Source: an uncultured virus (IMG/VR IMGVR_UViG_3300020403_000008) (lineage: Duplodnaviria; Heunggongvirae; Uroviricota; Caudoviricetes; Crassvirales). From it: a stretch of DNA of 20,000 bases. The translations under genes were made by a program, and so were the position numbers. The notes below the pieces were generated by a model. The model searched no databases, was not told the DNA's origin, and saw nothing but the letters and a program-made list of their open reading frames with translations. Below, in pieces: positions 1 to 20,000 of the stretch. Position 1 is the first letter of the stretch, and each line of letters begins with the position of its first letter. The stretch is from IMG/VR virus record IMGVR_UViG_3300020403_000008. One strand, written 5' to 3'.

Positions 1-174
1 AAACAAATTGCTTACTCTATATTATCCACTAAGTTCGGGGTTCAAGAATACATTGTCAGAAGATTTCAAAAAGAAGCGTTTGCTGCATTAAAAAACGCAA
101 GAATAAGATTGAACGATGTCAACCCTGTTGACCTTGTAAAAGCAATGAAAGGTCGAAACAAGTGGATTAAATAA
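1..174 (+). CDS. 3' end of a phage structural protein (probable tail tubular A/adaptor-ring protein), partial
   Basis: Frame 1 is open from base 1: KQIAYSILSTKFGVQEYIVRRFQKEAFAALKNARIRLNDVNPVDLVKAMKGRNKWIK*. Its TAA (172-174) overlaps the next ATG (TAATG). Identity is inferred from position directly upstream of the stabilization-type gene. Confidence 0.6.
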   Translation, partial: KQIAYSILSTKFGVQEYIVRRFQKEAFAALKNARIRLNDVNPVDLVKAMKGRNKWIK

Positions 175-3100
175 TGAGATTAAGAAATACTTTTATTGGC
201 GGCAAAATGAACAAAGACGTAGACGAGCGTCTTGTTCCAGATGGTGAGTACAGAGATGCTGAAAACATCAAAGTTGCTATGTCTAATAGTTCTGACGTAG
301 GTGCTCTAGAAAATGTGCTGTCTAATAAACAAAAATCTTTTTTAGATACAGGTAATAATGCTGAGACCATAGGTAGCGCAGCTGTTGAATATACTAATTG
401 TGTTTATTGGTTTGTAAAATCTGATACTTCAAGTGCTGTTTATGAATACAACATCACTACTGATTTACAAAGAATAATATTATTAGACACTAGAACGGGC
501 TCAGACAATGTATTAAATTTTAGCAAAGAAAATAGAATAAACAATGTTGACACTGTAGTTGATACTGACAATGGTAAAATATTTATATTCTGGACAGACG
601 GATTAAATCCTCCTAGAAAAATAGAAATAGATAGGGCTGCTGAATACGGAGAAAATAATTTTACAGATGAAGACATTAGTGTTATAGTAAAACCTCCTCT
701 ACATAGACCTACGTTTACATTATCAGCTACAAACACAGCTGACGAAAATTATATTAAAGATAAGTTTCTACAGTTTTCATATAGATATAAATATGTAGAC
801 AACCAATATTCAGCTATATCTCCTTTTAGCAATCCCGCTTTTGAACCGTATCCTTTTAAATACAACTACGGATTAAATAGTAACGAGTCTTTTGTTAACA
901 GATACAATGTTGTAAACCTAACAGTAAACTCAGGAAGTCATCTAGTAAAAGAGGTTGAGGTTTTATATAAAGAAGCTGGCAAACAAAATCTGTATGTTGT
1001 AGAATCCTACAACAAAGAGAAAAAAACATGGGATGATAATACTGAATATGTAGTTACATTTCAAAACAAAAAAATAAGCAAGATACTGCCAGAGAGTCAA
1101 ATTAAAAGAATATTTGATGCTGTACCAAGAAAAGCTTTTGCACAAACATTTATTGGAAACAGATTGCTTTACGCTAACTACACGGAGAACTGGAATCTGA
1201 TTGACGAGTTGGGGGGTGAAATAAAACCTGATTTTACTGCTTCTGTTCTTACAAATGAATTTGCTACCGCTCCATACACAACCATGAAGGCTGGTAGAGA
1301 CTACGAAGTTGGTATAGTTTATTTAGATGAATATGGCAGAACTACGACAGTTCTTACATCTGATGGAAACAGTGTTTTTGTACCAAACGAAAATGCATTA
1401 TATCAGTCTAAACTACAAGTTGAGATAAGAAGCAAAGCTCCTGTATGGGCAAAGTATTTTAGATTTTTTATCAAAGAAAGTAAAATGCCATACGACATAG
1501 TTATTCCTACAAGATTTTATGTTGATGGAGCTTATGTATGGATAGAGCTGACTGGTAGTGACGTTAACAAAATAGAAAAAGGAACACGCTTAGTCGTCAA
1601 GGCAGATACCTCTGGACCTGTAAAAGGATACGTAGAAACAGAAGTGTTAGACCTACAAACGCAAACTGTAAACTTTTTAGAGCCTGACCCAACAGTAGCA
1701 GAACTAGAGCAAAAAGCAGGATTATATTATAAAATAAGACCAAAAGGGTTTACTTTCAATAATAATGCAGTAGAATTATATGAGTTCGAATCAAATCACA
1801 GCACAAGGGATAGAAGGGAAAATATGATAGATAGGGGTGATAAGCTCCAATATTTTGGCGAACCAATCCCTTATTTATCAGAATCAACTTCACTTGCTGG
1901 AAACTCACTATCTAGGTCAGGAACTAATATAGCCCCAAGAGATATTAGATATAAAATAATAATAGATGCTGTAGGGGATGGTATTACAACCTACGATGAG
2001 TTTAGAGTTGAATATACTGACAACGGGGTTGCTTATGCTCAACCAGCCGTAACAATTACAGGGAGTAGTCAAACTATAACCAACGGGCTTAGTGTAAGCT
2101 TTAGCTCTCGTTCTGGTCATACTGTAGGTGATTATTGGGTGGTTAGTGGTTACGGTAAAGAACCTTTAAACTTTGGAAATCGTGACAGGTCTCATGCTTT
2201 ATTTAGAGGAGAACCTGGCAATGAAGTTATTGAGGCAGGCTCAATAGTAGAAATAGAATATATTGAATCACAAAAAGCTGGTGACGGATATAGCAACAGT
2301 TTTACAGAATCATACACTTCAAGTAGCAGATATGCAAATTTAGAAGAATGGTATTACGGAGAAAACCTTTCTGGATTTGGTCCAGGAGTTACAGATGCAC
2401 AAGTATTTTTTAGACATGTTAACTTGACTGACGACCATGGAGGTGAAGGAAAAACCGCCTTCAAAGTACAAGTACAGCAAAACGGTACCATGTGTATGAT
2501 AATCCAAAGTAAACAAAGACAATGGAATGAAAGAAATGCAAATGCAAGAGTTTACACAACAGGATTATTAGAAATAAAATCATCAGACAGCCTGCCTATA
2601 TTTGAAACTAAAGCAATAGAAAAAGATTCAGATATATTTTATGAAGTAGGAGACACTTATGAGTTATCAGACGATAACACTTTCCACATTGGTAAAGCTG
2701 GTGACGTCCCTCAGTCTTTTACTTCTCCTGCTACAATTACAATAGACGCCCACAATGCATGGGCTTGGGGGAATGGATATGAGTCAATAAAGATAAAAGA
2801 CCTATTTAATAATCCAACATTTGTTTTTGACACAAGACCAAGCACCTTTATAGAAAGTTATAGAGAAAATAACAGAGTAGCTTCTTTAACATATTCTGGA
2901 GTTTATGAGCAAAGCACAAATTTCAATGCCTTAAATGAATTTAATTTATCTACGGCAAACTTTAAAGATATAGATGACGCTTTAGGCAGCATACAAAAAA
3001 TAGTATCAAGAGATAATGATATTGTAGTATTCCAAGAAAACAAAATATCTAAACTCTTGTTTAATAAAAACATCATATTTAACACTGACGGCTCAGGAAA

Positions 3101-4082
3101 TATATCACAAACTAAAAATGTATTAGGAACTATAACTCCTTATACAGGTGAGTTTGGTGTTGGATTGAACCCTGAAAGTGTTTGTAAATATGGAAACGTA
3201 ATATATTTTGCAGACACAAGTAGAGGTTTTGTGTTCAGACTGTCTAACGATGGACTGACTCAAATATCACAGTATGGTATGGCAAACTTCTTTAGAAGTG
3301 AATTACCAGTGCGTGATTTAAATAAAACTTTAGGTGGATACAATCCTAGAGACGGAGAGTATATTTTATCTTTACAAGGAGGAACAGAATCTACAGACAC
3401 TTTGTTGTGGGTTGGAGATGAATATTTCTGTGAACAAACATTTGTTGATGATGTAGTAGAATGGAGAGGTACAGAAGCTGTATGTCTTGTTTCTTGTTAT
3501 GGAGATTGGAAACCTTCTGACATAGTAAGCGATGGTCAAGATTGGAGAATTGACGAGTATTATTGTGAGCAAGAAGAGCAAAGACCAACACCAATACCAA
3601 TTCCTACACCATCACCAGTGCCTACACCAGTACCCGTGGCTGTGCCGTCTCCATCTCCAGTGCCAGTACCTGTACCAGTGCCAGTTGTTGCTCCTAACCC
3701 AACGCCTGCACCAGCACCTACACCAGCGCCTGTAGCGGATTTACCACCAGTACCAGCACCAACACCTACCCCGTCACCAACACCTGCCCCAGTACCAGCG
3801 CCAACACCTGCGCCTACACCTACTCCTACGCCAGCGCCTGCACCAACGCCTGTACCAACTCCAGCTCCAGCAGCGCCAACAGCGATGAGACTAAACCCAT
3901 GTAACCCATTTGGTGTTTACAACAAAGTAATACCTTATGACTCTAATCTGTCAGTTGGAACCGTGGTTACAATAGAAGACGGAAACTGTTATGCAGTTAG
4001 TGCTGCTATCACTGATACAGCGAACTCTACAGTGTCACAAGTTTTCTTAAATTGTTATAATTGTACTAATGGAATATTTTAA
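174..4082 (+). CDS. Tail tubular protein B / 'stabilization protein'-like, N-terminal part, with an appended Pro-rich stalk and Cys-containing terminal module
   Basis: 1302 aa. The N-terminus F..GKMNKDVDERLVPDGEYRDAENI and internal motifs WTDGLNPPRKI, FSYRYKYVDNQYSAISPFS, GNRLLYANY, YEVGIVYLDEYGR and GEFGVGLNPES are ones I recognise from Bacteroidota-phage stabilization proteins. The conserved part ends near LGGYNPRDGEYILSL (~3330-3374). W-x6-C repeats, about 100 aa of (X-P)n and a C...C...CxxC module follow. Confidence 0.75.
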   Translation: MRLRNTFIGGKMNKDVDERLVPDGEYRDAENIKVAMSNSSDVGALENVLSNKQKSFLDTGNNAETIGSAAVEYTNCVYWFVKSDTSSAVYEYNITTDLQRIILLDTRTGSDNVLNFSKENRINNVDTVVDTDNGKIFIFWTDGLNPPRKIEIDRAAEYGENNFTDEDISVIVKPPLHRPTFTLSATNTADENYIKDKFLQFSYRYKYVDNQYSAISPFSNPAFEPYPFKYNYGLNSNESFVNRYNVVNLTVNSGSHLVKEVEVLYKEAGKQNLYVVESYNKEKKTWDDNTEYVVTFQNKKISKILPESQIKRIFDAVPRKAFAQTFIGNRLLYANYTENWNLIDELGGEIKPDFTASVLTNEFATAPYTTMKAGRDYEVGIVYLDEYGRTTTVLTSDGNSVFVPNENALYQSKLQVEIRSKAPVWAKYFRFFIKESKMPYDIVIPTRFYVDGAYVWIELTGSDVNKIEKGTRLVVKADTSGPVKGYVETEVLDLQTQTVNFLEPDPTVAELEQKAGLYYKIRPKGFTFNNNAVELYEFESNHSTRDRRENMIDRGDKLQYFGEPIPYLSESTSLAGNSLSRSGTNIAPRDIRYKIIIDAVGDGITTYDEFRVEYTDNGVAYAQPAVTITGSSQTITNGLSVSFSSRSGHTVGDYWVVSGYGKEPLNFGNRDRSHALFRGEPGNEVIEAGSIVEIEYIESQKAGDGYSNSFTESYTSSSRYANLEEWYYGENLSGFGPGVTDAQVFFRHVNLTDDHGGEGKTAFKVQVQQNGTMCMIIQSKQRQWNERNANARVYTTGLLEIKSSDSLPIFETKAIEKDSDIFYEVGDTYELSDDNTFHIGKAGDVPQSFTSPATITIDAHNAWAWGNGYESIKIKDLFNNPTFVFDTRPSTFIESYRENNRVASLTYSGVYEQSTNFNALNEFNLSTANFKDIDDALGSIQKIVSRDNDIVVFQENKISKLLFNKNIIFNTDGSGNISQTKNVLGTITPYTGEFGVGLNPESVCKYGNVIYFADTSRGFVFRLSNDGLTQISQYGMANFFRSELPVRDLNKTLGGYNPRDGEYILSLQGGTESTDTLLWVGDEYFCEQTFVDDVVEWRGTEAVCLVSCYGDWKPSDIVSDGQDWRIDEYYCEQEEQRPTPIPIPTPSPVPTPVPVAVPSPSPVPVPVPVPVVAPNPTPAPAPTPAPVADLPPVPAPTPTPSPTPAPVPAPTPAPTPTPTPAPAPTPVPTPAPAAPTAMRLNPCNPFGVYNKVIPYDSNLSVGTVVTIEDGNCYAVSAAITDTANSTVSQVFLNCYNCTNGIF

Positions 4083-5867
4083 ATGAGCAATACAGGGAAA
4101 AAAATAGTAACAAGGTTAAGACTGTTCAAGGACGGTTTAGCAACTAGCAAGACAAAACCAAATGTCGAGGGAGATAAATATTATGTTGCTCCATTCGAAG
4201 ATTTGGTAGATTGCAACCCTCTTGGACCACCAGCTCCTATACCTACTCCTACACCTGCGCCAGTTGCTGTGCCAGCTACACCACCTGTGCCTACACCTAT
4301 TCCTGTAGCGGTGCCTACGCCTTCGCCTACGCCTACGCCTAGCCCATCGCCTATTCCTGCACCTGTGCCTAATCCTTCACCAAGTCCAACGCCAGCTCCA
4401 GTAGTTGTGCCTGTACCTGTGCCTAATCCTATTCCAACCCCTGCACCTGTACCAAGCCCTGTACCTACCCCTGCACCTGCTGTAGCACCAACCCCTGCAC
4501 CAGTAATGCCTACACCTGCTCCTGTACCTGCTGCACCAACACCTGTACCAACTCCAGCTCCTTCTCCAGTAAGCTCTACTTATCATGTTTGGTCAGCAAA
4601 TGCAATAAGTATTAGTCAAGGAATTTATAGTGGAGATGTTTCCATAAGTGATGCGGAGCAAACAATATTTGGTCCTATAGGTAGCGGATATGATTCAACG
4701 TTAGCTTTATATTTAAGTGACGATAATGGAAGCTTAGATTCAGTACAAGCTCTTATCGCTTCAGCTGATGCTGGCGGAACTATAACTGCGTACTTAAGCT
4801 TTAACGAGATTCTTCCAATACAAGTAAATCAGTCAGCTCCTTACTTTGCTATAAACGAAGTAGGCGCAGGCACACAAGCGAACATAAGAAGCGCACAGCT
4901 TGTAATTAAAATAGGTACAGACAGCACTTTACAAGTTATAAACGGTTCTGATATATATTATGAAGTAGACCCTCTTAACCCTGTACCTTCTCCAGTTGCA
5001 GCTCCAGTAGCATCAGATGTATGTTTGACTAATCCTGCTGCTGTAACAATACAAAGCATTGGAGGTGGCAATAAATATGTATTTGGAGGCACATACGGAA
5101 ATTATAAAACATCAGTTGGAACTTATGTCTTAACAGGCGTTCCTTCAAGTCATCCTATTGCAATACTTAATGACGGAAAACAAGCCTTCATAAGTTATAC
5201 AGGAACTGTAATGGCAGGTTCAAAAGGCATAAATAATGTTTATCACGACTACTATTATGGCGATATAACGATAACTGTAAACGGAGATTATGGAACAGTA
5301 AGTTATGATTGCTTGAATCATGGATACATGGGAGGACAAGATAACTTAACATACGATAATGTTACATGTTCAGCTCCTTCTCCAGTGCCAGTTGCACCTA
5401 CGCCAATCCCTGTAGGAGCACCTATAGCAGCTCCAGTAGTAGCACCAACACCAGCACCTACTCCTGCTCCAACACCAGCTCCAGCACCTGTTCCTGCTCC
5501 AGCTAGCCAAACTTATAGTTTACCACAAGGCTCAACTATTAATGTTCAAGGCATGTTTATGAACGGAACGCTTTGGTATTATTTTGGAACTTATGGTAGC
5601 GATAGCTATACGTTTACCGCAACCTCAGGAACATATACATTCAACGTTCCTCAATCACACCCTATTGCTTTCTATACAGCGGGAACAACAAACAGCTACA
5701 GTGGAGGTACGGTGCAAGGAACTAAGAACGGACAAGACGGAAATAGCTATGATTATAGATATGGAACAGTAACATTAACAATAAATGATACAAGCGCAAC
5801 ACCAGTGACTTATGAGTGTTATTTCCATGGTTACATGGGAGGATTAAACAATCTCATATTGGTATAA
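4083..5867 (+). CDS. Pro-rich modular putative virion appendage protein with two cupredoxin-like (HP...CxxHGYMGG) repeats
   Basis: 594 aa, starting immediately after the upstream TAA. It has the shared N-terminal NTGxK..LR..KPN..Y..P..D...C module, (X-P)n tracts, and two similar domains each containing SHPIA and YxCxxHGYMGG. Confidence 0.7.
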   Translation: MSNTGKKIVTRLRLFKDGLATSKTKPNVEGDKYYVAPFEDLVDCNPLGPPAPIPTPTPAPVAVPATPPVPTPIPVAVPTPSPTPTPSPSPIPAPVPNPSPSPTPAPVVVPVPVPNPIPTPAPVPSPVPTPAPAVAPTPAPVMPTPAPVPAAPTPVPTPAPSPVSSTYHVWSANAISISQGIYSGDVSISDAEQTIFGPIGSGYDSTLALYLSDDNGSLDSVQALIASADAGGTITAYLSFNEILPIQVNQSAPYFAINEVGAGTQANIRSAQLVIKIGTDSTLQVINGSDIYYEVDPLNPVPSPVAAPVASDVCLTNPAAVTIQSIGGGNKYVFGGTYGNYKTSVGTYVLTGVPSSHPIAILNDGKQAFISYTGTVMAGSKGINNVYHDYYYGDITITVNGDYGTVSYDCLNHGYMGGQDNLTYDNVTCSAPSPVPVAPTPIPVGAPIAAPVVAPTPAPTPAPTPAPAPVPAPASQTYSLPQGSTINVQGMFMNGTLWYYFGTYGSDSYTFTATSGTYTFNVPQSHPIAFYTAGTTNSYSGGTVQGTKNGQDGNSYDYRYGTVTLTINDTSATPVTYECYFHGYMGGLNNLILV

Positions 5868-5871
5868 CAAC

Positions 5872-5887
5872 TATCTTTGTATGATAT
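5872..5887 (+). promoter_or_regulatory. Putative Bacteroidota-type -7 promoter element (TATCTTTG) followed by TATGATAT
   Basis: TATCTTTG at 5872-5879 matches TAnnTTTG and lies in the gap before the ATG at 5891. No clear -33 TTTG was seen. Confidence 0.45.
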
Positions 5888-5890
5888 AAT

Positions 5891-6880
5891 ATGGCAAATA
5901 CAGGAAGAAAAATATTCACAACGATACGTCAATATGTAAATGGCGTTTGGAATGGTAACGAGAAGTTCAATAGCACTGACGACCCCGATTACCAATACCC
6001 TGTTTATGATGAAGCTGAGTGCCCACTACCAGCTCCTCCTGTACCTAGCCCTATACCAACCCCTAGCCCAATACCAACACCTAGTCCAGTGCCTGTTCCA
6101 GTGCCAGCAGTAGTGGAAGTAGCCCCTAATCCAGTGCCAAATCCAGCGCCAACTCCAACTCCTGCGCCTGTGCCTGTTGTTATTCCTACACCTGCACCAG
6201 TTCCGAATCCAACACCAGCGCCACAACCAGCGCCGACACCCGCTCCTGCCCCAGTACCAGCGCCTGTTCCTGCTCCTACTTCAAACCAGTATGTGGTTCT
6301 AGGACATGGAAACACTCCAGAATCTGCATGTAACGATACTTTAAATGATTTATTTTATATTGATGGAGGACAATTAGCTACATCAACAAATGTATATTAC
6401 GATGAATGGGGTAATACAAAATCGCAACCACAATATTTTGCTCAAGCTGGAGTTGTAAGATATTGGAATGGACAACAGTTTACATCTTACGCAAGTTGTA
6501 ACCAACCAACACCAGCACCGAATGCACCTACGCCAATACCAGTAGCAGCACCAACAGCTAATTGCGGAAGCAATACATATTACCTAAGCGAAGGTAAATT
6601 CTATGGTTCTTATTTCTGCCAATCACCTTTTGGAGGAATGGTTGGAGGAGGAGCGGCAACGACTTACCCAATAACTATGGCGGTTACATCGAACTATCCT
6701 GGAAGCGTAAATGCTCAACTAGGAGCTCAACTATGTTACAATGGACAACCTTTTTCTGGAAACGGCTTCCATTATTTAATGAGTACCTTCCCTAGTAGTT
6801 TTAATGGAACAGGAAGTCATTCGATGGTAGTAATTAATGATGACGGTATAGTTACCTCAGTTAAATATATGACTTGTTAA
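5891..6880 (+). CDS. Pro-rich modular putative virion appendage protein
   Basis: 329 aa: shared N-module, (X-P)n stalk, a [17 protein letters not shown] domain shared with 7808-9598, and a C-terminal YLS..LGAQ..INDDGI..C domain shared with 6882-7616. Confidence 0.7.
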   Translation: MANTGRKIFTTIRQYVNGVWNGNEKFNSTDDPDYQYPVYDEAECPLPAPPVPSPIPTPSPIPTPSPVPVPVPAVVEVAPNPVPNPAPTPTPAPVPVVIPTPAPVPNPTPAPQPAPTPAPAPVPAPVPAPTSNQYVVLGHGNTPESACNDTLNDLFYIDGGQLATSTNVYYDEWGNTKSQPQYFAQAGVVRYWNGQQFTSYASCNQPTPAPNAPTPIPVAAPTANCGSNTYYLSEGKFYGSYFCQSPFGGMVGGGAATTYPITMAVTSNYPGSVNAQLGAQLCYNGQPFSGNGFHYLMSTFPSSFNGTGSHSMVVINDDGIVTSVKYMTC

Positions 6881-6881
6881 T

Positions 6882-7616
6882 ATGGCAAATACAGGAAGTA
6901 AAATATATAGAACACTAAGGCTCATAAAAAATGGAGTTAGGACTGTGCACGTAAAACCAAACGTGCCAGAAGACCCTGACTTTATTCCTCCTTTTACAGA
7001 CTTAGCAGATTGCTATACTAATGCTCCTGCACCTGCGCCTGTTCCTGTTCCTACTCCTGCTCCAGTACCTAACCCCGTGCCAACTCCAGGACCTGCACCT
7101 TCGCCAGTTCCTGCTCCAAGTGCAATACCTCCAACCCCAGCACCAACTCCTGCGCCAGTCGCAGATGTTGTACCAACTCCTTCACCGACACCTGCGCCAG
7201 TAGTAAAAGTTCCTTCGCCAGTTGGAGGAGGTTCTACTTTCTACTTGAGTGCACCAAGACAAACATCTGGAGAGCTTTGTACAGCTGCATTCTCAATAGT
7301 TATGAGTGTACAAGTTACAGCTGCTACGGTTGCAACATCGTTAGGAGCACAAGTAACTAAAGGTGGAGCTAAGTTCCGTGGTAATAACAAATATTACGCA
7401 ATGGACAATTCAAATAATTATACAACACACTCAGGAACAACATGGTTGGCTGTGTTAATTAATAATGATGGTATTATACAAGATATAGTTTACGTAAAAT
7501 GTGGAGATTATGATGTAATGGATGGCACAGGATGGGATGCCCCAGACCCTTATAGCACGACACCACAAGATGACGGTGAGCTTGTTTATTATTATAAAGA
7601 TACAATGAATTTATAG
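6882..7616 (+). CDS. Pro-rich modular putative virion appendage protein
   Basis: 244 aa: shared N-module, (X-P)n stalk, a domain paralogous to the C-terminus of 5891-6880, and an acidic tail. Confidence 0.7.
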   Translation: MANTGSKIYRTLRLIKNGVRTVHVKPNVPEDPDFIPPFTDLADCYTNAPAPAPVPVPTPAPVPNPVPTPGPAPSPVPAPSAIPPTPAPTPAPVADVVPTPSPTPAPVVKVPSPVGGGSTFYLSAPRQTSGELCTAAFSIVMSVQVTAATVATSLGAQVTKGGAKFRGNNKYYAMDNSNNYTTHSGTTWLAVLINNDGIIQDIVYVKCGDYDVMDGTGWDAPDPYSTTPQDDGELVYYYKDTMNL

Positions 7617-7618
7617 AT

Positions 7619-7801
7619 ATGAATTTTACAGGGAAAAAATATTATACAAAATTAAGAAAGTTCGTAAATGGAAAACCAACACAAGATGTGAAGGAAAACA
7701 TAATTACGGACCCAGATTATATAAAACCTTATGATGATATAAATGGATGCCCAAAAGGCACGTCTTCGCCTGCACCAGTTGCAGCGCCAACGACATATTA
7801 A
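7619..7801 (+). CDS. Small protein consisting almost solely of the shared N-terminal module
   Basis: 60 aa MNFTGKKYYTKLRKFVNG...KENIITDPDYIKPYDDINGCP plus SSPAPVAAPTTY. It fits exactly between its neighbours. Confidence 0.7.
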   Translation: MNFTGKKYYTKLRKFVNGKPTQDVKENIITDPDYIKPYDDINGCPKGTSSPAPVAAPTTY

Positions 7802-7807
7802 TTAATT

Positions 7808-9598
7808 ATGGGAGAGAAGTACAGTAAAATAAGAAAATATGTAAATGGCTTTCCAAGAAAAGATGAAGCCGTCAATAGCCCTAACGAGCCTGGGTACATT
7901 CCACCTGTATATGATGCAGGTCCATGTACTACATGTGAGCCAGAGGAAGATGGTGACATTATTGAATGGAGAGGTCATTCTTTTTACTGTGAGCAAGAAG
8001 ATGCTCCCACGCCCACTCCTAGCCCAACTCCTAGTCCTACGCCTAGTCCGACACCTAGTCCTACGCCTACGCCAACACCTACCCCTACACCGACTCCAAC
8101 ACCTAGTCCTAGTCCAGTCCCTGTACCAGCACCTAGTCCAATACCTGCCCCAGCGCCAATACCAGCTCCTTCTGTAGGATATGTATATTATACTGTTAAC
8201 GATTGTGCAAACACTTTTAATGATATTGTAAGAAGCACTTTTTCTCTTTCAACAGGAACTGTTGTAAAAGCCACAGGATTAAGTGGTTGTTTAGAAATAG
8301 GAAATTTAACACAGCCATCAGGCACAAACACTGTATATGAGGAATATACTGATTGTACTGATTGTGGCGCAACAACTCCTACTCCAACACCTAGCCCAAC
8401 ACCTACACCAACACCAGCGCCAGCTCCAATTCCAACGCCAGCGCCTGTGCCTAACCCAACCCCTGCGCCTACACCAGCACCTACTGTTACACCTGTAGTG
8501 CCTACTCCTGTACCTCAACCAACTCCAACGCCTGCGCCTACGCCAGCTCCAACACCTGCGCCAATACCAACGCCAGCACCTACACCAATTCCTAATCCGT
8601 CTCCAACTCCTGCTCCAGCAGCAACACCTTGCTATGAGTTTACTATTGGAAATGATGGAGACCCATTAGAAGACGATTCGTTCACATACAGATTATGTGG
8701 CGGAGGAAATTCATCAGGTTCAATACCATTTGGAGACCAAATCACTGTTTGTGCCGAGTCTTTCTCTCACATAGGAACTTCTCTAACTGTAACAAACACA
8801 TTAGTCCCTTGTTCTGGAAGCCCTGTACCTAGTCCAGTAGCACCTAATCCTGTGCCAACACCAGCACCCACACCAGCACCAGCTGCTACACTTTACTATG
8901 TTGCTTTAGGTAACGGAAACAGCGCTTCATCTGCTTGTAACGATACCTTAAACGACTACTTCTACATAGATAGTGGACAATTAGCTACTGCTAGCGGAAT
9001 ATATTATGATGCTGCGGGTCAGAACCCTGCGCAAGACACGCACTATACGGATGGAAATGGATTCTATGTTGTTTGGAATGGTTCGTCTATCACAAACCTA
9101 CAGTCTTGTCCTTCAGGACCTGCTCCAACAGCTCCTAATCCAGTATATACACCACCTACACCTAACCCTGTATATACACCACCTTCTCCATCACCTGTAG
9201 CGCCTACACCTAATCCTGTAGCACCTACGCCTAATCCTGTAGCACCTACACCTAATCCTGTAGCGCCAACACCTAACCCTGTAGCGCCAACACCTAATCC
9301 TGTGGCTCCCACGCCTACACCAGCGCCAGCACCAACTCCTACACCTGCACCGCAGCCAGTAGCTCCGCAGCCTGTACCGACACCAGCACCATCTTCTACG
9401 CCTGCATACAGAGTTGAAGTTCAAAAGCAAAGTGGAGTCACTTACATGATATTCACATATACTGATTCGTACGGAAACTCTCAGTACAAAAACAGTATGA
9501 ACTCTTATGAATATGTTTGTGCTCAAAACGGTAATATTCAACCTCAGTCAGGAGTACAAGGGTACCAGAACCTATACACAAGTTGTGTTGGTTCGTAA
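7808..9598 (+). CDS. Pro-rich multi-module putative virion appendage protein
   Basis: 596 aa: divergent N-module, a [11 protein letters not shown] motif, and four (X-P)n tracts separating four small Cys-containing domains. Confidence 0.7.
8018..8065 (+). repeat. 12-bp coding tandem repeat (PSPT x4)
   Basis: cctagcccaact cctagtcctacg cctagtccgaca cctagtcctacg. Confidence 0.8.
9134..9319 (+). repeat. Coding tandem repeats: 27-bp x2 (PNPVYTPP[T/S]) then 21-bp x~6 (PVAPTPN)
   Basis: 27-mers at 9134 and 9161. 21-mers cctgtagcNccWacRcctaaY at 9194, 9215, 9236, 9257 and 9278, with a degenerate copy at 9299. Confidence 0.85.
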
Positions 9599-9642: not shown

Positions 9643-10908
9643 ATGTTCTCAGAAATACCAAATTTTCTCACTCATGATGAGTGCGATTTATTTATACAAT
9701 TAATAGAAAAACAAAACACCCGTTCACAAGTTGCTGGAAGCGGAAGTGATAATTCAAAAATAGAAGATAGTAGGACTTCTTACACTTCTAATTTTGGCGA
9801 AGAAATGTTACTTCCAAAAGCTCTAAAAGAAAGAATTGCAGCTCATTTAGACTTAGATGTTGTAAGAGGTGAAACCTTGCAAGGTCAAAAATACGAAGTA
9901 GGTCAATATTTTAGACCACATCTAGATTGGTTTCAAGGTGATGCATATAACAACCATTGTTTGCATTCTGGAAACAGAACTCACACTTTCATGTTATATC
10001 TAAATGATGATTTTGAAGGTGGAGGTACTGATTTTCCAAACTTAGGTAAAACTGTAAAGCCAGAGAAAGGAAAAGCTGTATTCTGGCGTAACATGGATGA
10101 TAACGGAAACGGTATATCTGATGTTATGCATGAAGGTATGGATGTGACGAAAGGAACTAAATATATAGTTACAAGTTGGTGGAGAGAAAAAGAATTTAAT
10201 GGCGCTGAGAACACAAGGCTTGCAAATGAATTTCATGAAGCACAAAGAAAAGAAAAAGAGTCTAAGGTTGTAAATATTAATTCAGGCACACAAACATTTA
10301 AAACTGTAGATGAGATACCTAGATTTACAGAAAATGGATTTATGAAGGCTAAGGTTCCTCAAGATGTGTGGGGCTTAATTCAGGACTCATACCACTTATT
10401 AAAAGATAAGGAGGTTGCAGAAAAATTTTCAGGAAAAGAAGGCATTATAGATACAATAGTTACTGATGCCGAAAGCAGCACTATTTTAAGTTTTGAGCAT
10501 ATACCAAACATTAGAACTCAAATACATAAAATGTTAATGCCACTACATGAGGAGTGGGCAAAAACAAGGCTAGAACCATCTTTTGTGTATGGTATAAGGT
10601 CTTATCAAAGAGGAGCTACGTTAGCGAAACACGTTGACAGGATAGCGACTCATCACATATCTACTATTATTATTGTAGACAAAGATTTAAAGTGTGGTTG
10701 TCAAACAAAAGAGTTTGGTGATGATTGGGCTTTAGATATACAGGGTCATGACGGAGAGTGGTATGAAGTTTTTGCAGAACCAGGAGAAATGATTTTATAT
10801 GAATCTGCTGTCTGTGAACATGGTAGAAGTAAACCTTTTCAAGGAACAAGCTTCAAGAACTTTTATACACACTACAAGTTAGTTGATTACCAGTATGCGG
10901 GACAATAA
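9643..10908 (+). CDS. Tandem 2OG-Fe(II) dioxygenase: prolyl 4-hydroxylase-like domain plus a second dioxygenase domain
   Basis: Domain 1 has IPNFLTHDEC, RTS, ETLQGQKYEVGQYFRPHLDWF (H93-x-D95), NRTHTFMLYLND..EGGGTDFP, VKPEKGKAVFW, H163 and GTKY (K173), the canonical P4Hc layout. Domain 2 has YGIRSYQRGATLAKHVD (H330-x-D332) and PGEMILYES..CEHGR (H393). Confidence 0.88.
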   Translation: MFSEIPNFLTHDECDLFIQLIEKQNTRSQVAGSGSDNSKIEDSRTSYTSNFGEEMLLPKALKERIAAHLDLDVVRGETLQGQKYEVGQYFRPHLDWFQGDAYNNHCLHSGNRTHTFMLYLNDDFEGGGTDFPNLGKTVKPEKGKAVFWRNMDDNGNGISDVMHEGMDVTKGTKYIVTSWWREKEFNGAENTRLANEFHEAQRKEKESKVVNINSGTQTFKTVDEIPRFTENGFMKAKVPQDVWGLIQDSYHLLKDKEVAEKFSGKEGIIDTIVTDAESSTILSFEHIPNIRTQIHKMLMPLHEEWAKTRLEPSFVYGIRSYQRGATLAKHVDRIATHHISTIIIVDKDLKCGCQTKEFGDDWALDIQGHDGEWYEVFAEPGEMILYESAVCEHGRSKPFQGTSFKNFYTHYKLVDYQYAGQ

Positions 10909-13465
10909 ATATATTTCTTTTGACCCGTGGTGGGGTGGTTTCTCTAACATAAGAATGACGTATGAATTAGTAGGAGCTTTATCTGTTATAACTGGTAGAA
11001 CAATAATTTTACCTCACAGAATATATTGTTTGTTTTTATCAGAATGGCAAGATAAAAAAACATGGTTTGACATGTTTGATGCTTTAGATAAAAAAAAATT
11101 CAGAAAGCATTTTGATTGTATAGAATATTATGACATTCCAGAATATGAAAATCTTGAAAACGATGCGCAATATTTCGAAAATGTTTCGTCTATTGCGAAA
11201 GTTATTACTTTTGGCGACAAAGACGGAAAACTAGGTCCTATGAAAGGTCCTGATAATGATTATGTCTTAACATGTGGCATAGAGGACCAAAGCGAGTTTG
11301 ATGTTTTTAAAGGCGACAGACAAGTTATAGACTTAGAGTGTGATGATAAATTTATACACTTCCCTAGAAACTTGTTTGGTCATTTTTATTACCATGTTTA
11401 TGGTAAAACACCTATTATTAGAAACAGGATTAAAGAAAAAGTAAACTTAGGTATACAATACAAACCTGATATTTTTGATAAAGCCAAACAAATAACAGAC
11501 AAATTAGGAACATTTAATGCTATTCATGTTAGAAGAAATGATTTTCTGCAAGTAAGAAAAGATATTGCAGAAGCTCAAACTAATAATCTTTTAGATGACA
11601 TTTCTGACAGAGTGCCTAACGACAAACCACTATTTATAGCAACAGACGAAAAAGACAAGTCTGTGTTTTTGCCATTAAAAAAAAGATACAATGTATTATA
11701 CCTTACTGATTTTCCACAATCAGGAGTAAATGATACAGATGATTTGCTTTTAGACCAAGTTGTATGCTCTCAAGCAGATATATTTTTAGGCAGTCATTTA
11801 TCTACTTTTTCTGACTATGTAAACATTATTAGAGGTCAGCAAAACAAAAAAGATTTTCATAGAGAAGGCACTAATTTTAACAGACCCAAGTTATCATATA
11901 ATAGGTTTCCATGGGAAGTGGAAGAATATGGATGGGATAAAACCTGGAGCTTTCACTGGGAATATGAGCAATCATACTTTAACATAGCCGTATATGGGTC
12001 TCACAACGCTTCTGTTGCATTATCTTATAAAGCTGATGTTCTTGAGGTGGTAGAGCTAGAAAGGTTTGTAAACAAAAAAAATGCAGCGTTTTATTTCCAT
12101 TTTCCAGAAGAAAATCCAGATGAATTAACCCTACAGATACATAATTATTTTGTAAAAAAATATGGTAGCTACGTGTATGATAATTGCTTATATAATAGCT
12201 GTGTAACTAACATAAATGTTTTGCCTGCTAAAAACTTTGAGTGGGTAGGTCATCACCTTGCTCATGTCAATAATGTTATATTTCAATCTCCAGCAACAAA
12301 AAGCTTGAATATATCTTTTGATGGGGGTTCTGATGAAGGACATTTTAATATATATAGGACTGAATCAGATAAGTTGCCGCAAAAAATATTTTCTACAAAA
12401 CAAGATATATGCGTTCCTTATGCTGCCGTAGCGCACTACCTATCTCCAATAAAACAAGAAGAAAACTGGTGGTGGGGCAACTTAGTGTACGCAGGAAAAC
12501 TTATGGGGTTATCTGCCTACGGTACAGTTAATCAGGATGATTACGACAAAATGTATCGTTATTTTAAGATGCAACAAACAGACAACGTAAACACAGCACA
12601 TGAAAACTTTCAAAGAGTATTTAATGTAACTCCTGAAAAAAGATTTAACGAAAAAGAATCTTATGATTTAGCTGCTGCTACACAAAAAGTTTTTGAAGAT
12701 ATATTTAAAGAAATTGTAGAGCCTTTTGTAGAAACACATAAAGATTATGAATTACAATTTAGTGGAGGTGGCGCTCTAAACGTAATAAACAATGCTAAGT
12801 GGGATGCTTTTGTTAGTCCTAATCCTGATGACAGGGGACTGTCTGTTGGCATGTTGTTCCATAAAATAAAACCTGGTCACGTTGTTGACACAAAGTATTT
12901 AGGTTCAGATATGTTTGGCTTATATACTCAATATAAACCTTACAGTATTGATGAAATGTGTGAGGATTTAGTAGAAGGTAAAATTATTGGTTTGTGCCAA
13001 GGACGTGGAGAGCACGGAGCAAGAGCGTTATGTAACAGAAGTATTTTATGTTTACCTAAAGAGGGTTTCAAAGAAAAACTTAATGACCAAGTAAAACATA
13101 GAGAGGCTTTCAGACCTTTCGCACCTGTATGTCGAAAGGAGGACGCTAACACGTGGTTTGATTTTGGAAAGTACACCGAATATATGAGTCACAACGCTAT
13201 AGTTAAAAATGTAAATAAAAGTATACAATCTATAATTCACAAAGATTATACCGCTAGGCTGCAAACAGTCACCTCGTCATCAAATCCTTTTATTTATTTA
13301 CTCTTGACTAGAATGAAGGAATTAGGTCATGACCCAATACTAATTAATACATCATTTAATGTAATGGGAAAACCTATAATAAACCAGTGGGAAGAAGCTA
13401 TAAGTATGCTAAATGACACTGGATTAGATGTATTAACGGACGGTAAAAACAAAATATATGGATAG
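10895..13465 (+). CDS. Fusion: O-fucosyltransferase-like GT-B domain + NodU/CmcH/TobZ-family O-carbamoyltransferase
   Basis: The N-domain has GGFSNIRM...GRTIILP, AIHVRRNDF, LFIATDE and DQVVCSQADIFLGSHLSTFS (POFUT/O-FucT motifs). From ~11978 come SHNAS, ELERF, HHLAH, SFDGG, GKLMGLSAYG, SGGGALN, GARALCNRSIL, KHREAFRPFAP, TARLQTV and NTSFN. ATG 10895 is preferred over the TTG at 10883 used in the ORF track. Confidence 0.88.
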   Translation: MRDNKYISFDPWWGGFSNIRMTYELVGALSVITGRTIILPHRIYCLFLSEWQDKKTWFDMFDALDKKKFRKHFDCIEYYDIPEYENLENDAQYFENVSSIAKVITFGDKDGKLGPMKGPDNDYVLTCGIEDQSEFDVFKGDRQVIDLECDDKFIHFPRNLFGHFYYHVYGKTPIIRNRIKEKVNLGIQYKPDIFDKAKQITDKLGTFNAIHVRRNDFLQVRKDIAEAQTNNLLDDISDRVPNDKPLFIATDEKDKSVFLPLKKRYNVLYLTDFPQSGVNDTDDLLLDQVVCSQADIFLGSHLSTFSDYVNIIRGQQNKKDFHREGTNFNRPKLSYNRFPWEVEEYGWDKTWSFHWEYEQSYFNIAVYGSHNASVALSYKADVLEVVELERFVNKKNAAFYFHFPEENPDELTLQIHNYFVKKYGSYVYDNCLYNSCVTNINVLPAKNFEWVGHHLAHVNNVIFQSPATKSLNISFDGGSDEGHFNIYRTESDKLPQKIFSTKQDICVPYAAVAHYLSPIKQEENWWWGNLVYAGKLMGLSAYGTVNQDDYDKMYRYFKMQQTDNVNTAHENFQRVFNVTPEKRFNEKESYDLAAATQKVFEDIFKEIVEPFVETHKDYELQFSGGGALNVINNAKWDAFVSPNPDDRGLSVGMLFHKIKPGHVVDTKYLGSDMFGLYTQYKPYSIDEMCEDLVEGKIIGLCQGRGEHGARALCNRSILCLPKEGFKEKLNDQVKHREAFRPFAPVCRKEDANTWFDFGKYTEYMSHNAIVKNVNKSIQSIIHKDYTARLQTVTSSSNPFIYLLLTRMKELGHDPILINTSFNVMGKPIINQWEEAISMLNDTGLDVLTDGKNKIYG

Positions 13466-14312
13466 AATATTTTTAAGCATAGCATCATACAGAGACCCAG
13501 ACTTAATAAACACAATAAAAGACGCACACAAAAGAGCTGACAACCCTGACAGAGTAACATTTGGAATATTGTTTCAAGGCACTAAAGAAGAGATTAACAA
13601 TTTTCTTTCACAAGCTGTAGGAAAAATCAACATTAAGTTTGTACATCATAAAGAAACAAAAGGAACGGGGTGGGCAAGAAACATTCTTACAAGAGATATG
13701 TTGCAAGATGAAGAGTATTGGTTACAAATAGATTCACACACAAGATTTATAAATGGATGGGACACGAAGCTTATCGACTTCTACAACAAGATAGGAGAAG
13801 ATTGTTTGGTTTCAGCATATCCCCCACACTTTGGAATGAATGAGTCTTATGATGTATACACAACTAAAACAGTGAATAACAGAGCATTAGTAGAGGGATT
13901 TACTGATGTCTTTAGCTTTGAAAACACAGTAGGAAAAGTTCCTGTAGAAGAATATGAAGATTCAATAACAGCCGCTGGAGCTTTTCAATTTGCAAAAAGA
14001 CATGTAGCTAAGGCGCTGACATTTGATGCGTACTTTAATCCTTGGATGGACCAAGAAATATCTTCTTGCCTAGCGTGGATGAATGGATATAATATTTATG
14101 CGCCTAGAGATGCTGTTTTGTGGCACTGCTATGAAGATAATCATATAGGCTCTGATGAAAAATGGAGAGGTTTAGTTGCTGACGAAGTAAAAGTAACTGG
14201 TTATGAAGACAAGCCATTTGACATTATAAAGCACTGGCACACAAAAAGGAATTGGAACCAATGGAAGGATAGGGTTCTTGTAGATATTAATGATTTAAAA
14301 AACGAACAATGA
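13458..14312 (+). CDS. GT60 / Gnt1-like polypeptide (hydroxyproline or Thr/Ser) GlcNAc-transferase
   Basis: IFLSIASYRDP, KGTGWARN, EEYWLQIDSHTRF..GWD..LI (DSH motif), SAYPP and GYNIYAP...LWHCY match the Skp1-HyPro GlcNAc-transferase family pattern. There is no signal anchor. Confidence 0.82.
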   Translation: MDRIFLSIASYRDPDLINTIKDAHKRADNPDRVTFGILFQGTKEEINNFLSQAVGKINIKFVHHKETKGTGWARNILTRDMLQDEEYWLQIDSHTRFINGWDTKLIDFYNKIGEDCLVSAYPPHFGMNESYDVYTTKTVNNRALVEGFTDVFSFENTVGKVPVEEYEDSITAAGAFQFAKRHVAKALTFDAYFNPWMDQEISSCLAWMNGYNIYAPRDAVLWHCYEDNHIGSDEKWRGLVADEVKVTGYEDKPFDIIKHWHTKRNWNQWKDRVLVDINDLKNEQ

Positions 14313-15292
14313 AGACAGCTTTAGTTTTAGGTGGTGGAGGTTTTATAGGCTCACACCTTGTTAAAAGATTAAAAGAAGAAGGCTACTATGTTAGAGCAGT
14401 AGACTTAAAAAAACCTGAATTTTGGAAAACAGCAGCAGACGACTTTATTATAGGAGATTTGAGGTGGAGTCATATATGCTCTGCCGCATTTAGACCTTTA
14501 GAAGACAAAAGAAGGTTTGATGAAGTTTATCAGCTTGCTGCTGATATGGGTGGCGCTGGTTATCTGTTTACTGGTGATAGTGATGCAGATATTATGCACA
14601 ACTCTGCCTTAATAAACCTGAATGTGTTAAGAGAGTGTGTTCTTGAAGAGCATGCTCCTAAAAAAATATTCTATGCAAGTAGCGCCTGTGTGTATCCAGA
14701 GTACAATCAACTGGACCCAGAAAGCCCAAAATGTACAGAAGACAGTGTATATCCTGCTGAACCTGACTCTGAATATGGATGGGAAAAATTGTTTAGTGAG
14801 AGAATGTATATGGCTTTTGCAAGAAATAAAAACTTAAATGTAAGGATAGGGAGATTTCATGGAATCTTTGGACCATACGGAACATGGAATGACGGAAAAG
14901 AAAAAGCCCCTGCTGCAATATGCAGAAAGGTTGCGGAGTCAAACGATAGCATAGATATATGGGGAGACGGAGAGCAAACAAGGTCTTTTATGTATATAGA
15001 CGATGCTATTGACACAGTGCGTAAATTTATGATGAATGAAGGATTTCAAGGACCAATGAATATAGGTTCTGAAGAAATGGTGTCTATAAATAACTATGCA
15101 CGCATAGTAATGGAAGTTGCAAAAAAAGATTTGGATATTGTGCACATAGAAGGTCCTCAAGGTGTGAGAGGAAGAAACTCAGACAACACATTAATGGAGC
15201 AAGAATTGAACTGGACTCCAGGGGGTAGTCTTAGAGATGGTGTACAAAAAACGTACAAGTGGATTGAAGAGCAGGTGCAAAAACTGTCTTAG
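14309..15292 (+). CDS. GDP-mannose 3,5-epimerase-like NAD-dependent epimerase (extended SDR)
   Basis: GGGGFIG, QLAADMGGAG, YASSACVYP, YGWEK (YxxxK), EKAPAAICRK, WGDGEQTRSF and GPQGVRGRNSDN. ATGA overlap with the upstream gene. Confidence 0.88.
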   Translation: MKTALVLGGGGFIGSHLVKRLKEEGYYVRAVDLKKPEFWKTAADDFIIGDLRWSHICSAAFRPLEDKRRFDEVYQLAADMGGAGYLFTGDSDADIMHNSALINLNVLRECVLEEHAPKKIFYASSACVYPEYNQLDPESPKCTEDSVYPAEPDSEYGWEKLFSERMYMAFARNKNLNVRIGRFHGIFGPYGTWNDGKEKAPAAICRKVAESNDSIDIWGDGEQTRSFMYIDDAIDTVRKFMMNEGFQGPMNIGSEEMVSINNYARIVMEVAKKDLDIVHIEGPQGVRGRNSDNTLMEQELNWTPGGSLRDGVQKTYKWIEEQVQKLS

Positions 15293-15313: not shown

Positions 15314-16054
15314 ATGGCAAACTACGAGAACAAGACAGTTGGGTTTAGTGAAATAAATAAAGGCTGGACGTCATTTTATTCTTACATTCCTGAAGATATG
15401 GTCTACATGAAGTCAGACTTTTATACTTTTAAGGGCGGTAATATATACAAACACAACATTGATGAGAGTTCTCGTAACAAATTTTACGATAAATTTTATC
15501 CTAGTAAGGTTGAAACCATCATAAACGATGACCCAGAAGCTGTCAAAAATTTTAGAACTCTCAACATGGAAGGCTCTTCTGCTTTCTGGAGAGTAGAAAT
15601 AAACACAGACTTAGATAAAGGCGGAGCGACTTATGATGATTTTGAAGAAAGAGAGCGATTGTTTAAGGCTCACATAAGAACCGACAGAGACGACAATCTT
15701 AACTTGGAAAGACTTACCGTGCAAGGATTAGGTACATTAATATCTACAAACGGCACGTCAATGTATTTTAGATTTATAGATAACGCCATTGAGTATGGTG
15801 ACTTCGTTTATAAAATATATGGTAACTCGTATACGTATTTAGGTAAAATTATTGCTGTATTTGAAGATTATATTATGTTAGACTCTATAGCGGACCCAGT
15901 AGAACTTGGTCAATTTTGCTTTGCAACAAAAGACCCAGTGATAGAAAGCTATGGACTAAAAGGATATTTTGGTAGCTTTACGTGTACAAGTTATGAATCA
16001 ACTCCAATAGAATTGTTTGCAGTTGGTACAGAAGTAACGCAAAGCAGTAAATAA
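15314..16054 (+). CDS. Separately encoded C-terminal part of the tail tubular B / stabilization protein
   Basis: 246 aa beginning KTVGFSEINKGWTSFYSYIPE..FYTFKGGNIYKHN...RNKFY...KNFRTLNMEG and ending ESYGLKGYF...ELFAVGTEV..SS. I recognise these as the usual C-terminal motifs of this protein family. Confidence 0.7.
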   Translation: MANYENKTVGFSEINKGWTSFYSYIPEDMVYMKSDFYTFKGGNIYKHNIDESSRNKFYDKFYPSKVETIINDDPEAVKNFRTLNMEGSSAFWRVEINTDLDKGGATYDDFEERERLFKAHIRTDRDDNLNLERLTVQGLGTLISTNGTSMYFRFIDNAIEYGDFVYKIYGNSYTYLGKIIAVFEDYIMLDSIADPVELGQFCFATKDPVIESYGLKGYFGSFTCTSYESTPIELFAVGTEVTQSSK

Positions 16055-18470: not shown

Positions 18471-20000
18471 ATGGACAAGGAAGTATTAGAAGATTTATAT
18501 AAGAGAGCTGTATCTAAAGGGTACACTAAGACGTTAGAAGATTTTACGTTGCTGATAAATTCTGATGAAGAAGTTTTATTGGACAATTATAATTACGTCA
18601 AAGAAAAAGGATATGGAAAACCGATAGAAGATTTTCAAGCTCTTCTCACTGAAAAAAAAAATCCAGAAGTCTCTTCAATCAAGCCGACAGAAAACATTCC
18701 AATCGCTTTTTCGGAATCAAATTTTACATTGGACGATACCAAGTTGTCTTCGGATTTATTCGAACCAGAAAAAGCCGATGAATACAGAACTTTTTTTAAG
18801 TACAATGGATTCGGTGTACCTACCATAGGTGTAGAAAAAGACACAGACGGTCAGTATTTAAAAGGAGGGTTTGGTGATTTTATTAATCAGTTGCCGTTTG
18901 GAGAGTTTATAGACGACCAAGCTAGAGCATGGGCTAGCGGAAAAGAAGATGCAGATGCAGCTGAAGCTGCTGCCGAATTAATGAATGAAATAGGCACATT
19001 TTCAAAAGGCAACCCTACGGTAGAGCAAGCAAACACAATGCTTAAAGAAATGTTTGAATCACAGACAACTCCTATGTCTGATGAGATGAAACAGTTTCAA
19101 AAAGATTTACAAGAAAACGGTAACGATGCTTACGCAGCTGTAAAAGCCGCAGCTAACAACCCTAGTGCTGCTACAGAATACGTTATGAGAAGCATGCGTT
19201 CTATGTTTAATGATGACGCTATAGCTACAGGACTCGCCACGCTAGCAACAAATACCTCAATAGGGTTTGCTGCTGGAGGACCTCTTGGCGCTTTAGGTGG
19301 TTTTATGAGAGGTATTCCTGCTGCAATGACAGCCATGGGAGCTCAAACTGACATGGCACTATCTTTCGGAGAGTTTTTTGTAGAAGAGTTAGGTGATGGT
19401 TTTACAAGACAAGATGTAGCAAACCTTTTACAAGACCCTGAAAAACTACAAGAAGTACAGAATAGAGCTTTAGCTAGAGGTGTTTCTATTGCTGCTGTTA
19501 ATGCGTTTACTGCTGGACTAGGAATTAGAGTAGCGTCAAACGTATTTAGGGCAGGAAGAAAAGGTTTGAGAGCAGGATTAGAGTCGTTTGCTAAAGTTAC
19601 GCCTTTAGATATGGCTGGAGGTTCTCTTGGTGAATTTGCAGCGCAAGCAACATCAGGACAAGAGTTTAACACAGCTGAAATGGCTTTAGAAGGTCTTCTT
19701 GACCCTATGTCTAGTATTGCAACAACAGTAGGAGGTACTGTTATTGATGCAGGAAGCGCTCCTTCGTATAAAATTAACGGAGGTAAAACTACTAAAGCAG
19801 ATTTTATAAGACGTTTAGGCGCAATGTCTGACGAACAATTAGAGCAAACAAATTTCACCGTAAATAATGACGATGAAACTTGGCGTCAGGTTGATGATAG
19901 GCTTAAAGATATTCAGTTTGGAAAAGAAATAAAAGAGATTTATGGAGACATAGATGATGAGCAAACAAGAAGATTAACTGATTTAGAAAAAGAAAAAAGA
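18471..20000 (+). CDS. Large putative internal virion/ejection protein, 5' part (runs off the window; absent from the ORF track)
   Basis: ATG at 18471, open for 510 codons to the window end: MDKEVLEDLYKRAVSKGYTKTLEDF... with Gly/Ala-rich hydrophobic segments (IATGLATLATNTSIGFAAGGPLGALGGFMRG). Confidence 0.6.
   Translation, partial: MDKEVLEDLYKRAVSKGYTKTLEDFTLLINSDEEVLLDNYNYVKEKGYGKPIEDFQALLTEKKNPEVSSIKPTENIPIAFSESNFTLDDTKLSSDLFEPEKADEYRTFFKYNGFGVPTIGVEKDTDGQYLKGGFGDFINQLPFGEFIDDQARAWASGKEDADAAEAAAELMNEIGTFSKGNPTVEQANTMLKEMFESQTTPMSDEMKQFQKDLQENGNDAYAAVKAAANNPSAATEYVMRSMRSMFNDDAIATGLATLATNTSIGFAAGGPLGALGGFMRGIPAAMTAMGAQTDMALSFGEFFVEELGDGFTRQDVANLLQDPEKLQEVQNRALARGVSIAAVNAFTAGLGIRVASNVFRAGRKGLRAGLESFAKVTPLDMAGGSLGEFAAQATSGQEFNTAEMALEGLLDPMSSIATTVGGTVIDAGSAPSYKINGGKTTKADFIRRLGAMSDEQLEQTNFTVNNDDETWRQVDDRLKDIQFGKEIKEIYGDIDDEQTRRLTDLEKEKR

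Follow-up and report, generated by a model that had tools for sequence, protein, structure and literature searches.

A candidate split-domain connector between tail scaffolds and socket proteins in crAss-like and other Bacteroidota phages

A split muzzle gene with W motifs and N-modules

The 20,000-nucleotide stretch of DNA analysed here (the window) comes from an uncultured virus of the Crassvirales (IMG/VR record IMGVR_UViG_3300020403_000008) and contains the structural region of a crAss-like phage. The muzzle, a tail protein, is not encoded in the window as a single chain from the N-terminal part to the C-terminal domain, it is distributed over two open reading frames (ORFs). ORF 174-4082 matches the Pfam family PF25731 (crAss_MUZ; E 4e-19, 68.6 bits, cut-off 27) and also phrog_14478, while ORF 15314-16054 matches PF25729 (E 5e-12, 46.5 bits, cut-off 27). 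When compared with the intact muzzle of locus L043, the first ORF aligns to about residue 1140 and the second from residue 1138. Therefore, an 11-kb cassette splits the muzzle gene. It carries W motifs, five ORFs that begin with a common N-module, and four modifying enzymes (Table 1). We describe the W-x6-C motifs (plugs) and the N-modules (sockets) as two parts of one domain, which most likely connects the socket proteins to the tail.

The five W motifs listed in the initial annotation are all in frame, four in the muzzle ORF and one in ORF 7808-9598. W-x6-C occurs only four times in the 15 main ORFs, where shuffled sequences give 0.86 (p about 0.01, for a motif that was picked after being seen), and W-x6-CEQ occurs three times against 0.003 expected. 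The muzzle docking region is made up of about 55 residues of short motifs. A spacing of 12 residues between plugs is common across loci (8 of 28). Muzzle residue 1108 is an extra Cys after plug 2 and is kept in L187, L194, L199 and L007. The Cys-less WKPSDIVS unit is kept across the clade; its W half scores -4.4, which is not plug-like, in a scoring matrix trained only on 42 plugs found in cis (in one chain with the socket; cut-off 11, set after the map had been seen). The clade shares the whole layout, with three plugs, the extra Cys, the W-[KQ]-P-S-[DE]-I unit and an unchanged order of the five socket types.

DNA identity between pairs of motifs had initially been taken as evidence of their common origin. 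These matches exist, but the probability of identical codons given the same amino acids, computed under the codon usage of the window, is 0.12 and 0.16, and the 12-base match is lost in the relatives L195 and L199. Since shared amino acids and codon bias explain the DNA matches, we ruled them out as support.

The N-modules had been described as five single-Cys units. The five do align, with nine invariant columns including one Cys, but the single-Cys description is wrong for ORF 7808. Its module is without the NTG start and ends with C-x2-C, and both traits are present in 5/5 aligned members of the 7808 type.

Two parts of one domain

The initial annotation suggested that W-x6-C and the N-module are one domain cut in two, in which case both parts should be found fused in cis in other proteins, as they indeed are. 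A profile of 16 modules was compared with 1.84 billion representative proteins and matched 398 of them at E 0.001 or better, including a few false matches. The best 150 of these 398 proteins contain 180 copies of the module, 137 N-terminal and 43 internal. W-x5-8-C was found just upstream of 27 of the 43 internal copies, compared with 862 of 14,350 sequence windows (6.0%) of the same proteins. The other 16 internal copies include false matches, longer starts and copies split by an insert. Proteins P0001 and P0002 were rejected as false matches (lectin and immunoglobulin (Ig) repeats). The complete domain also forms tandem arrays, for example in P0053, P0013 and P0006, and it can be split inside one chain: in the eight cases shown, the insert is at the same junction and separates plug and socket by 146-418 residues.

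Among 16 GenBank phage records, real matches were found only in Chryseobacterium phage MA9V-3 and Sphingomonas phage PAU. In the MA9V-3 protein XQU63071 (tblastn), an N-module is followed by W-x6-C-E directly before a second NTG module. Three W...C units stand at the C-terminus of the protein encoded just before the cluster (XQU63073), and the module begins three further proteins (XQU63072, XQU63071 and XQU63070), which gives three plugs and three free sockets. The cultured phage MA9V-3 is a myovirus according to parts of its description (PMC13120357).

The whole cis domain has about 65 residues, about 12 in the plug (W...C) and about 45 in the socket, with the consensus W-x6/8-C, turn, NTG..L..Y....TG..K.N...DPDY..P..D...CP. 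AlphaFold models it with a predicted local distance difference test score (pLDDT) of 97.6 and a predicted template modelling score of 0.78. In the model of P0006, blocks of residues between 11 and 190 have a pLDDT of 86-97, and the plug is seen as two strands running into the NTG strand. This strand has 7 residues in both modules that come after a plug, against 2 in the first module, which has no plug. The cis and split forms, together with the strand order in the models, show that the domain lacks a strand that occurs as a separate segment. The models are consistent with an elongated beta domain in which plug and socket strands would pair.

We found no family match for the module in Pfam, NCBIfam, PHROG or the PDB. 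The PDB sequence search gave an unrelated best match at E 0.035, PDB searches with the muzzle halves returned a Pro-rich artefact or nothing, and the ESM Atlas gave only unnamed clusters under 0.9 or no usable match. Fold searches of BFVD and the PDB gave no match at E 0.001. In the single-domain fold search, 5 of 48,161 chains reached Z 2 or more and none Z 5; with P0006, the best Z was 2.8, on a low-confidence end. The top rows were thrombospondin type 1 (8oxr; Z 2.6, root-mean-square deviation (rmsd) 4.8) and the Aap B-repeat/SasG G5-E domain (8deo, 5dbl; Z 2.3, rmsd 4.7), with 53 residues aligned and no Pfam match. These are elongated, three-stranded domains repeated head to tail in stalks, and the low scores hint at a likeness in shape only and not at kinship. 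The absence of a fold match does not prove a new fold. No description of the module was found in searches of open-licence PMC papers and bioRxiv preprints, and the domain and the split connector are apparently undescribed.

The cysteines of the two parts change together. Both are kept in 26 cis-type copies and both are lost in three, and the single discordant copy is a wrong W pick (Fisher p 0.001). The last Cys is kept in 210 of 210 distinct free N-terminal sockets, although the profile favours that Cys. The family consensus has one Cys per half and no other conserved His or Cys ligand. Because both Cys were lost together in one lineage, the simplest reading is that the plug Cys probably bonds the socket-end Cys as a disulfide. 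Disulfides between proteins are present in the crAss001 tail, as far as the consulted parts of its structural description go (PMC10172136).

Plugs, sockets and cargo across loci

To compare separate genes, we used 77 viral and 34 bacterial-genome loci as well as L001-L010, grouped in 39 clusters. The bacterial-genome loci are titled as Bacteroidota genera or unnamed in 33 of 34 cases, and one is labelled Pelagibacteraceae. Of these clusters, 21 have an N-terminal socket flanked by 2.5 kb or more on both sides. In 17 of the 21, a plug was located no more than three genes upstream of the first free socket, compared with 1 of 163 control genes. Free sockets with sufficient flank were present in 31 clusters, in which the number of plugs correlated with the number of free sockets (rho 0.62, p 2e-4). 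The two counts were equal in 20 of the 31 (16.4 expected, p 0.017), as in the loci with 3:3 (L009, L035, L098, L100, L091) or 2:2 (L008, L156, L204-207).

The proteins that carry the plugs are of different kinds. Plugs are found at the muzzle split (the window, L008, L062, L077), at the C-terminus of the intact muzzle (L043), in the gene after baseplate J or a wedge gene (L009, L098) and in prophage tail regions (L101, L031, L096). As a reverse control, we took loci selected by their muzzle (the best 80 of 488 and 6 close ones; 85 scored). Of these, 46 contained the complete muzzle ORF plus 5 kb of downstream sequence; both parts were absent from 42 and present in four, and no locus had one part alone.

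Several results weigh against the connector. The plug score cut-off was chosen with the map in view, and the motif of the plug is weak when taken by itself, with E 0.015 and a probability of 3% when its profile is aligned to the cis domain. Another profile comparison had window rows on both sides, which makes it circular, and is given no weight. Counts were unequal in 11 of the 31 clusters, among them the window with four Cys plugs for five sockets. Of these, L044, L051 and L061 have Cys-less cis pairs, which are invisible to the matrix, L070 has a second plug with Tyr for Trp, L086 becomes 2:2 once more flank is included (L156) and the plug score of L082 is at the cut-off; L052, L060, L022, L046 and the window stay unequal. 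L010, outside the 31 clusters, has two plug-like matches and no free socket. In the reverse control, the four loci with both parts all belong to the clade of the window, one cluster against 18. L266, whose flank is slightly too short for this control, has no socket but a plug-like match scoring 17, apparently a W...C that arose by chance in a cargo domain. The three Cys-less pairs seem to come from a single lineage. Charge complementarity between plug and socket was observed in cis (rho -0.41, p 0.007) but was not significant in trans (rho -0.21, p 0.30), where it is confounded by lineage and one pair (L068) is mis-assigned. Both trans binding and Cys-Cys pairing are read from comparison of genomes. 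When socket 5891 and the muzzle plug region were predicted as a complex, the score was 0.13 against a mark of 0.32, with no controls, and this counts neither way.

The cargo behind the sockets is variable, with fibronectin III, PKD, BACON, vWA and DUF5977 domains found across the loci. Socket proteins can also be very short, with 12 of 104 distinct socket starts in complete ORFs of the loci belonging to proteins of up to 70 amino acids (aa). In the window, ORF 4083 has two related cargo domains (5040-5360 and 5520-5860) with H-P ... C-x2-H-x-Y-M motifs, which we take to recall type-1 copper (cupredoxin) sites; the Pfam scan of the window ORFs gave no match for them. ORFs 5891 (6290-6500) and 7808 (8890-9110) have a small Cys-bracketed cargo domain in common, and a similar domain ends P0022, P0032 and P0083. 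The Cys domain at the C-terminus of the muzzle part (3890-4082) resembles another one in ORF 7808 (8190-8370) and in L266 ORF 10839. The socket protein P0105 combines fibronectin III and BACON domains with a weak intein-like (Hint) match at its end (E 5e-4). Matches to DUF5977 (PF19404) adjoin the module and do not lie over it, e.g. in L089 at residues 52-116, after the socket. In many Flavobacterium genomes (L089-L120), tail-fibre genes are followed by a two-gene plug/socket pair that contains DUF5977 domains, which parts of 10.1101/2020.12.07.414375 list as adhesin stalk domains. In L014 and its relatives, a W-x6-C-[VE] motif scoring 10-15, probably by chance, occurs in a protein of 160 residues that is encoded some 5 kb downstream of a socket gene (at 14500-14982 in L014).

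The enzyme genes at 9643-15292 are all inside the muzzle insertion and adjoin the Pro-rich stalks. The oxygenase is prolyl-hydroxylase-like and the O-fucosyltransferase is fused to a carbamoyltransferase. Judging from these sequences, the enzymes probably modify the Pro-rich stalks in a hydroxyproline glycosylation pathway. L008 has a similar enzyme set, loci with Thr-rich stalks (L009 at 10396, L266 at 13478) have a different small enzyme-like gene instead, and phrog_4417 matches similar neighbours in L098 and L065. Long muzzle extensions without plugs are found at the same spot in L214, L217, L230, L235, L237, L251, L262, L266 and L272, and in L266 the muzzle is split there, with a separate C-terminal gene. 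The split site is a general hotspot and, since many muzzles are split or extended there without the module, the split is independent of the module. At 18471-20000, a large protein begins that weakly matches the crAss-like virion RNA polymerase (phrog_2206, E 0.003).

Table 1. Plugs, sockets, muzzle parts and enzymes in the window.
Feature	Position	Strand	Basis
Plug 1, W-x6-C-E-Q	3408..3437	+	cis-trained matrix score 17.0
Plug 2, W-x6-C followed by extra Cys (C-x3-C)	3462..3497	+	matrix score 24.0
Cys-less W unit, W-[KQ]-P-S-[DE]-I (WKPSDIVS), 12 residues before plug 3; possible degenerate plug	3507..3530	+	clade conservation
Plug 3, W-x6-C-E-Q	3543..3572	+	matrix score 16.1
Plug 4, W-x6-C-E-Q, in ORF 7808	7967..7996	+	matrix score 20.2
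Socket protein 1: socket at 4083-4214, followed by Pro-rich stalks and cargo domains	4083..5867	+	N-module alignment
Socket protein 2: socket at 5891-6022, followed by a stalk and two small Cys-bracketed domains	5891..6880	+	N-module alignment
Socket protein 3: socket at 6882-7013, followed by a stalk and one cargo domain	6882..7616	+	N-module alignment
Socket-only mini protein, 60 aa	7619..7801	+	N-module alignment
Atypical socket (7808-7936), then own plug, stalks and cargo	7808..9598	+	alignment of 7808-type members
Muzzle N-terminal part, plug scaffold, then Pro-rich stalk and small Cys domain	174..4082	+	PF25731, phrog_14478, L043 alignment
Muzzle C-terminal part, closes the 11-kb insertion	15314..16054	+	PF25729, L043 alignment from residue 1138
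2-oxoglutarate-Fe(II) oxygenase, O-fucosyltransferase/carbamoyltransferase, N-acetylglucosamine transferase, epimerase	9643..15292	+	PF13640, PF10250, PF16861/PF02543, PF11397, PF01370

Docking model and alternatives

The core of the initial annotation, a split domain completed by the W strand, with paired Cys and the tail protein as scaffold, is supported by the cis forms, the co-occurrence of the parts, the matching counts and the joint loss of Cys, and from these we infer binding in trans. We therefore consider it likely that socket proteins dock on tail plugs and are locked by disulfides. Socket proteins would be made without their own edge strand and, as the tail assembles, would bind a plug on it that supplies this strand (strand complementation). 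The disulfide between the plug Cys and the last Cys of the socket would form on oxidation, probably at lysis; we saw no hydrophobic leader. With three or perhaps four plugs on each muzzle subunit, 18 to 24 sites would be available if the muzzle is hexameric like that of crAss001. Adhesin-like cargo would thus be displayed round the tail tip on long Pro-rich, probably glycosylated stalks. The presence of socket proteins on virions, host binding by the cargo and glycosylation of the stalks by the neighbouring enzymes are steps that we infer.

In the window phage, the wiring depends on ORF 7808, which would add another plug to the array and which we favour as a branch adaptor. The mini protein ORF 7619 is probably a cap for a spare plug. 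A less likely arrangement leaves the mechanism unchanged and alters only the wiring: the plug of ORF 7808 folds into its own socket (circular permutation), the muzzle offers three plugs and the Cys-less unit to four sockets, and ORF 7808 is attached otherwise, e.g. by its extra Cys and muzzle Cys 1108. The linker between its socket Cys and plug W has 13 residues, the longest of 42 (the others have 4-11), and therefore such self-closure is possible. It would also fit with the NTG-less, C-x2-C-ending socket of all five 7808-type members and with the absence of a socket gene after ORF 7808 in the window. However, a plug after a socket elsewhere serves a later socket, in cis or past an insert, and in the clade loci that cover it, the socket-only mini gene always directly precedes the 7808-type gene and needs a plug. 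Branching gives 5:5 plugs and sockets if the Cys-less unit is counted, while self-closure gives 4:4. The extra Cys of plug 2 and that of ORF 7808 could form a second, pair-specific bond, and the pairing of plugs with sockets may be coded in this or a similar way.

The nature of the lock has an alternative to which we give little weight, namely that plug and socket bind through a shared metal ion or without any covalent bond. Phage proteins are made in the reducing cytoplasm, one lineage manages without both Cys, and C-x2-C in ORF 7808 and C-x3-C in plug 2 could serve a metal. Yet the single conserved Cys in each half comes with no further conserved His or Cys as a ligand, and crassvirus tails have inter-subunit disulfides according to parts of PMC10172136.

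It is slightly less probable still that plugs and sockets are fission relics of one long repeat protein, neighbours by descent that no longer interact, with sockets that fold alone and attach otherwise. Most plug genes do lie immediately before socket genes, some of them (L043, L009) stop just behind the plug, and the socket without its plug is still predicted at high confidence. Relics would not be expected to stand side by side in the middle of a protein, 12-18 residues apart, and to be matched by socket genes up to kilobases away, nor to retain W and Cys on unrelated scaffolds or an otherwise unpaired Cys in every free socket. Recoding (readthrough, frameshift or hopping) that rejoins plug and socket, so that the domain is never split at the protein level, is very improbable: in L043, L009 and L096 the upstream gene does end with the plug, with only a few bases left to the socket gene, but in the window the last muzzle plug and the first socket are 170 residues and a stop apart, three consecutive plugs cannot each fuse to a different downstream gene, and all sockets start from an ATG of their own, placed at the same position.

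In chaperone-usher and type V pili, a donor strand from another chain completes a beta domain, and two-part subunits extend the chain. The connector would work in a similar way, with an incomplete beta domain completed by a strand of another chain and with subunits that have both parts and could extend the chain. Unlike in pili, we saw no Ig-fold match, chaperone, usher or leader, and the connector has rows of plugs on one scaffold, a probable disulfide lock and whole-domain repeats in cis. The module has no pilin family match in Pfam, NCBIfam or PHROG, and the fold searches contained no row with an Ig-like pilin fold (best Z 2.6). A countable array of docking sites on a scaffold is reminiscent of cohesin and dockerin, which are two whole domains. 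A peptide that completes a split domain and would lock it covalently is reminiscent of SpyTag/SpyCatcher, which is engineered and forms an isopeptide bond. Pfam gave no cohesin or dockerin match in the window ORFs or 94 related proteins, and there was no sequence match to SpyTag/SpyCatcher.

Closer in purpose is Klebsiella phage KP32, for which parts of PMC13352976 describe a T4 gp10-like branching domain and a conserved N-terminal peptide. There too, extra host-binding proteins dock through a short conserved N-terminal module and the cargo can be swapped. According to the same parts, the scaffold in KP32 carries the folded domain and the cargo the peptide, whereas the connector has these roles reversed; moreover, its halves are one split domain, found on muzzle, baseplate-region and tail-region proteins. 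No Pfam or PHROG match to a gp10-like branching domain was found on ORF 174 or the socket ORFs. In crAss001, the muzzle gp44 is one chain that forms a hexamer, and fibres dock on the hubs gp38 and gp39 by a short N-terminal segment (PMC10172136, in part). ORF 174 and ORF 15314 together are the homologue of this muzzle, but the muzzle of the window is split, and neither its plug array nor socket genes appear in the consulted parts of the crAss001 description. By analogy, the connector would work like donor-strand complementation and have a purpose like Klebsiella phage docking, being a member of neither family.

The attachment of several different host-binding proteins is known for few systems, each of one tail type. 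Here, unrelated phages reuse the same connector on crAss-like muzzles, in myophage baseplate regions and in prophage tail genes. We lean towards seeing it as a portable covalent tag: Bacteroidota phages would paste arrays of 12-residue plugs on any virion protein and a 45-residue socket before any cargo, with caps and double-ended adaptors, and so build branched, disulfide-locked, glycan-coated appendages. This would give a general rule readable from genomes, by which the plug count tells how many proteins are attached, and hundreds of hypothetical genes of Bacteroidota phages, those of the 398 representative proteins, would gain a role. If the lock is real, a peptide and a 5-kDa protein would form a very small natural protein-coupling pair. 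The connector also suggests a purpose for some of the split crAss-like muzzles.

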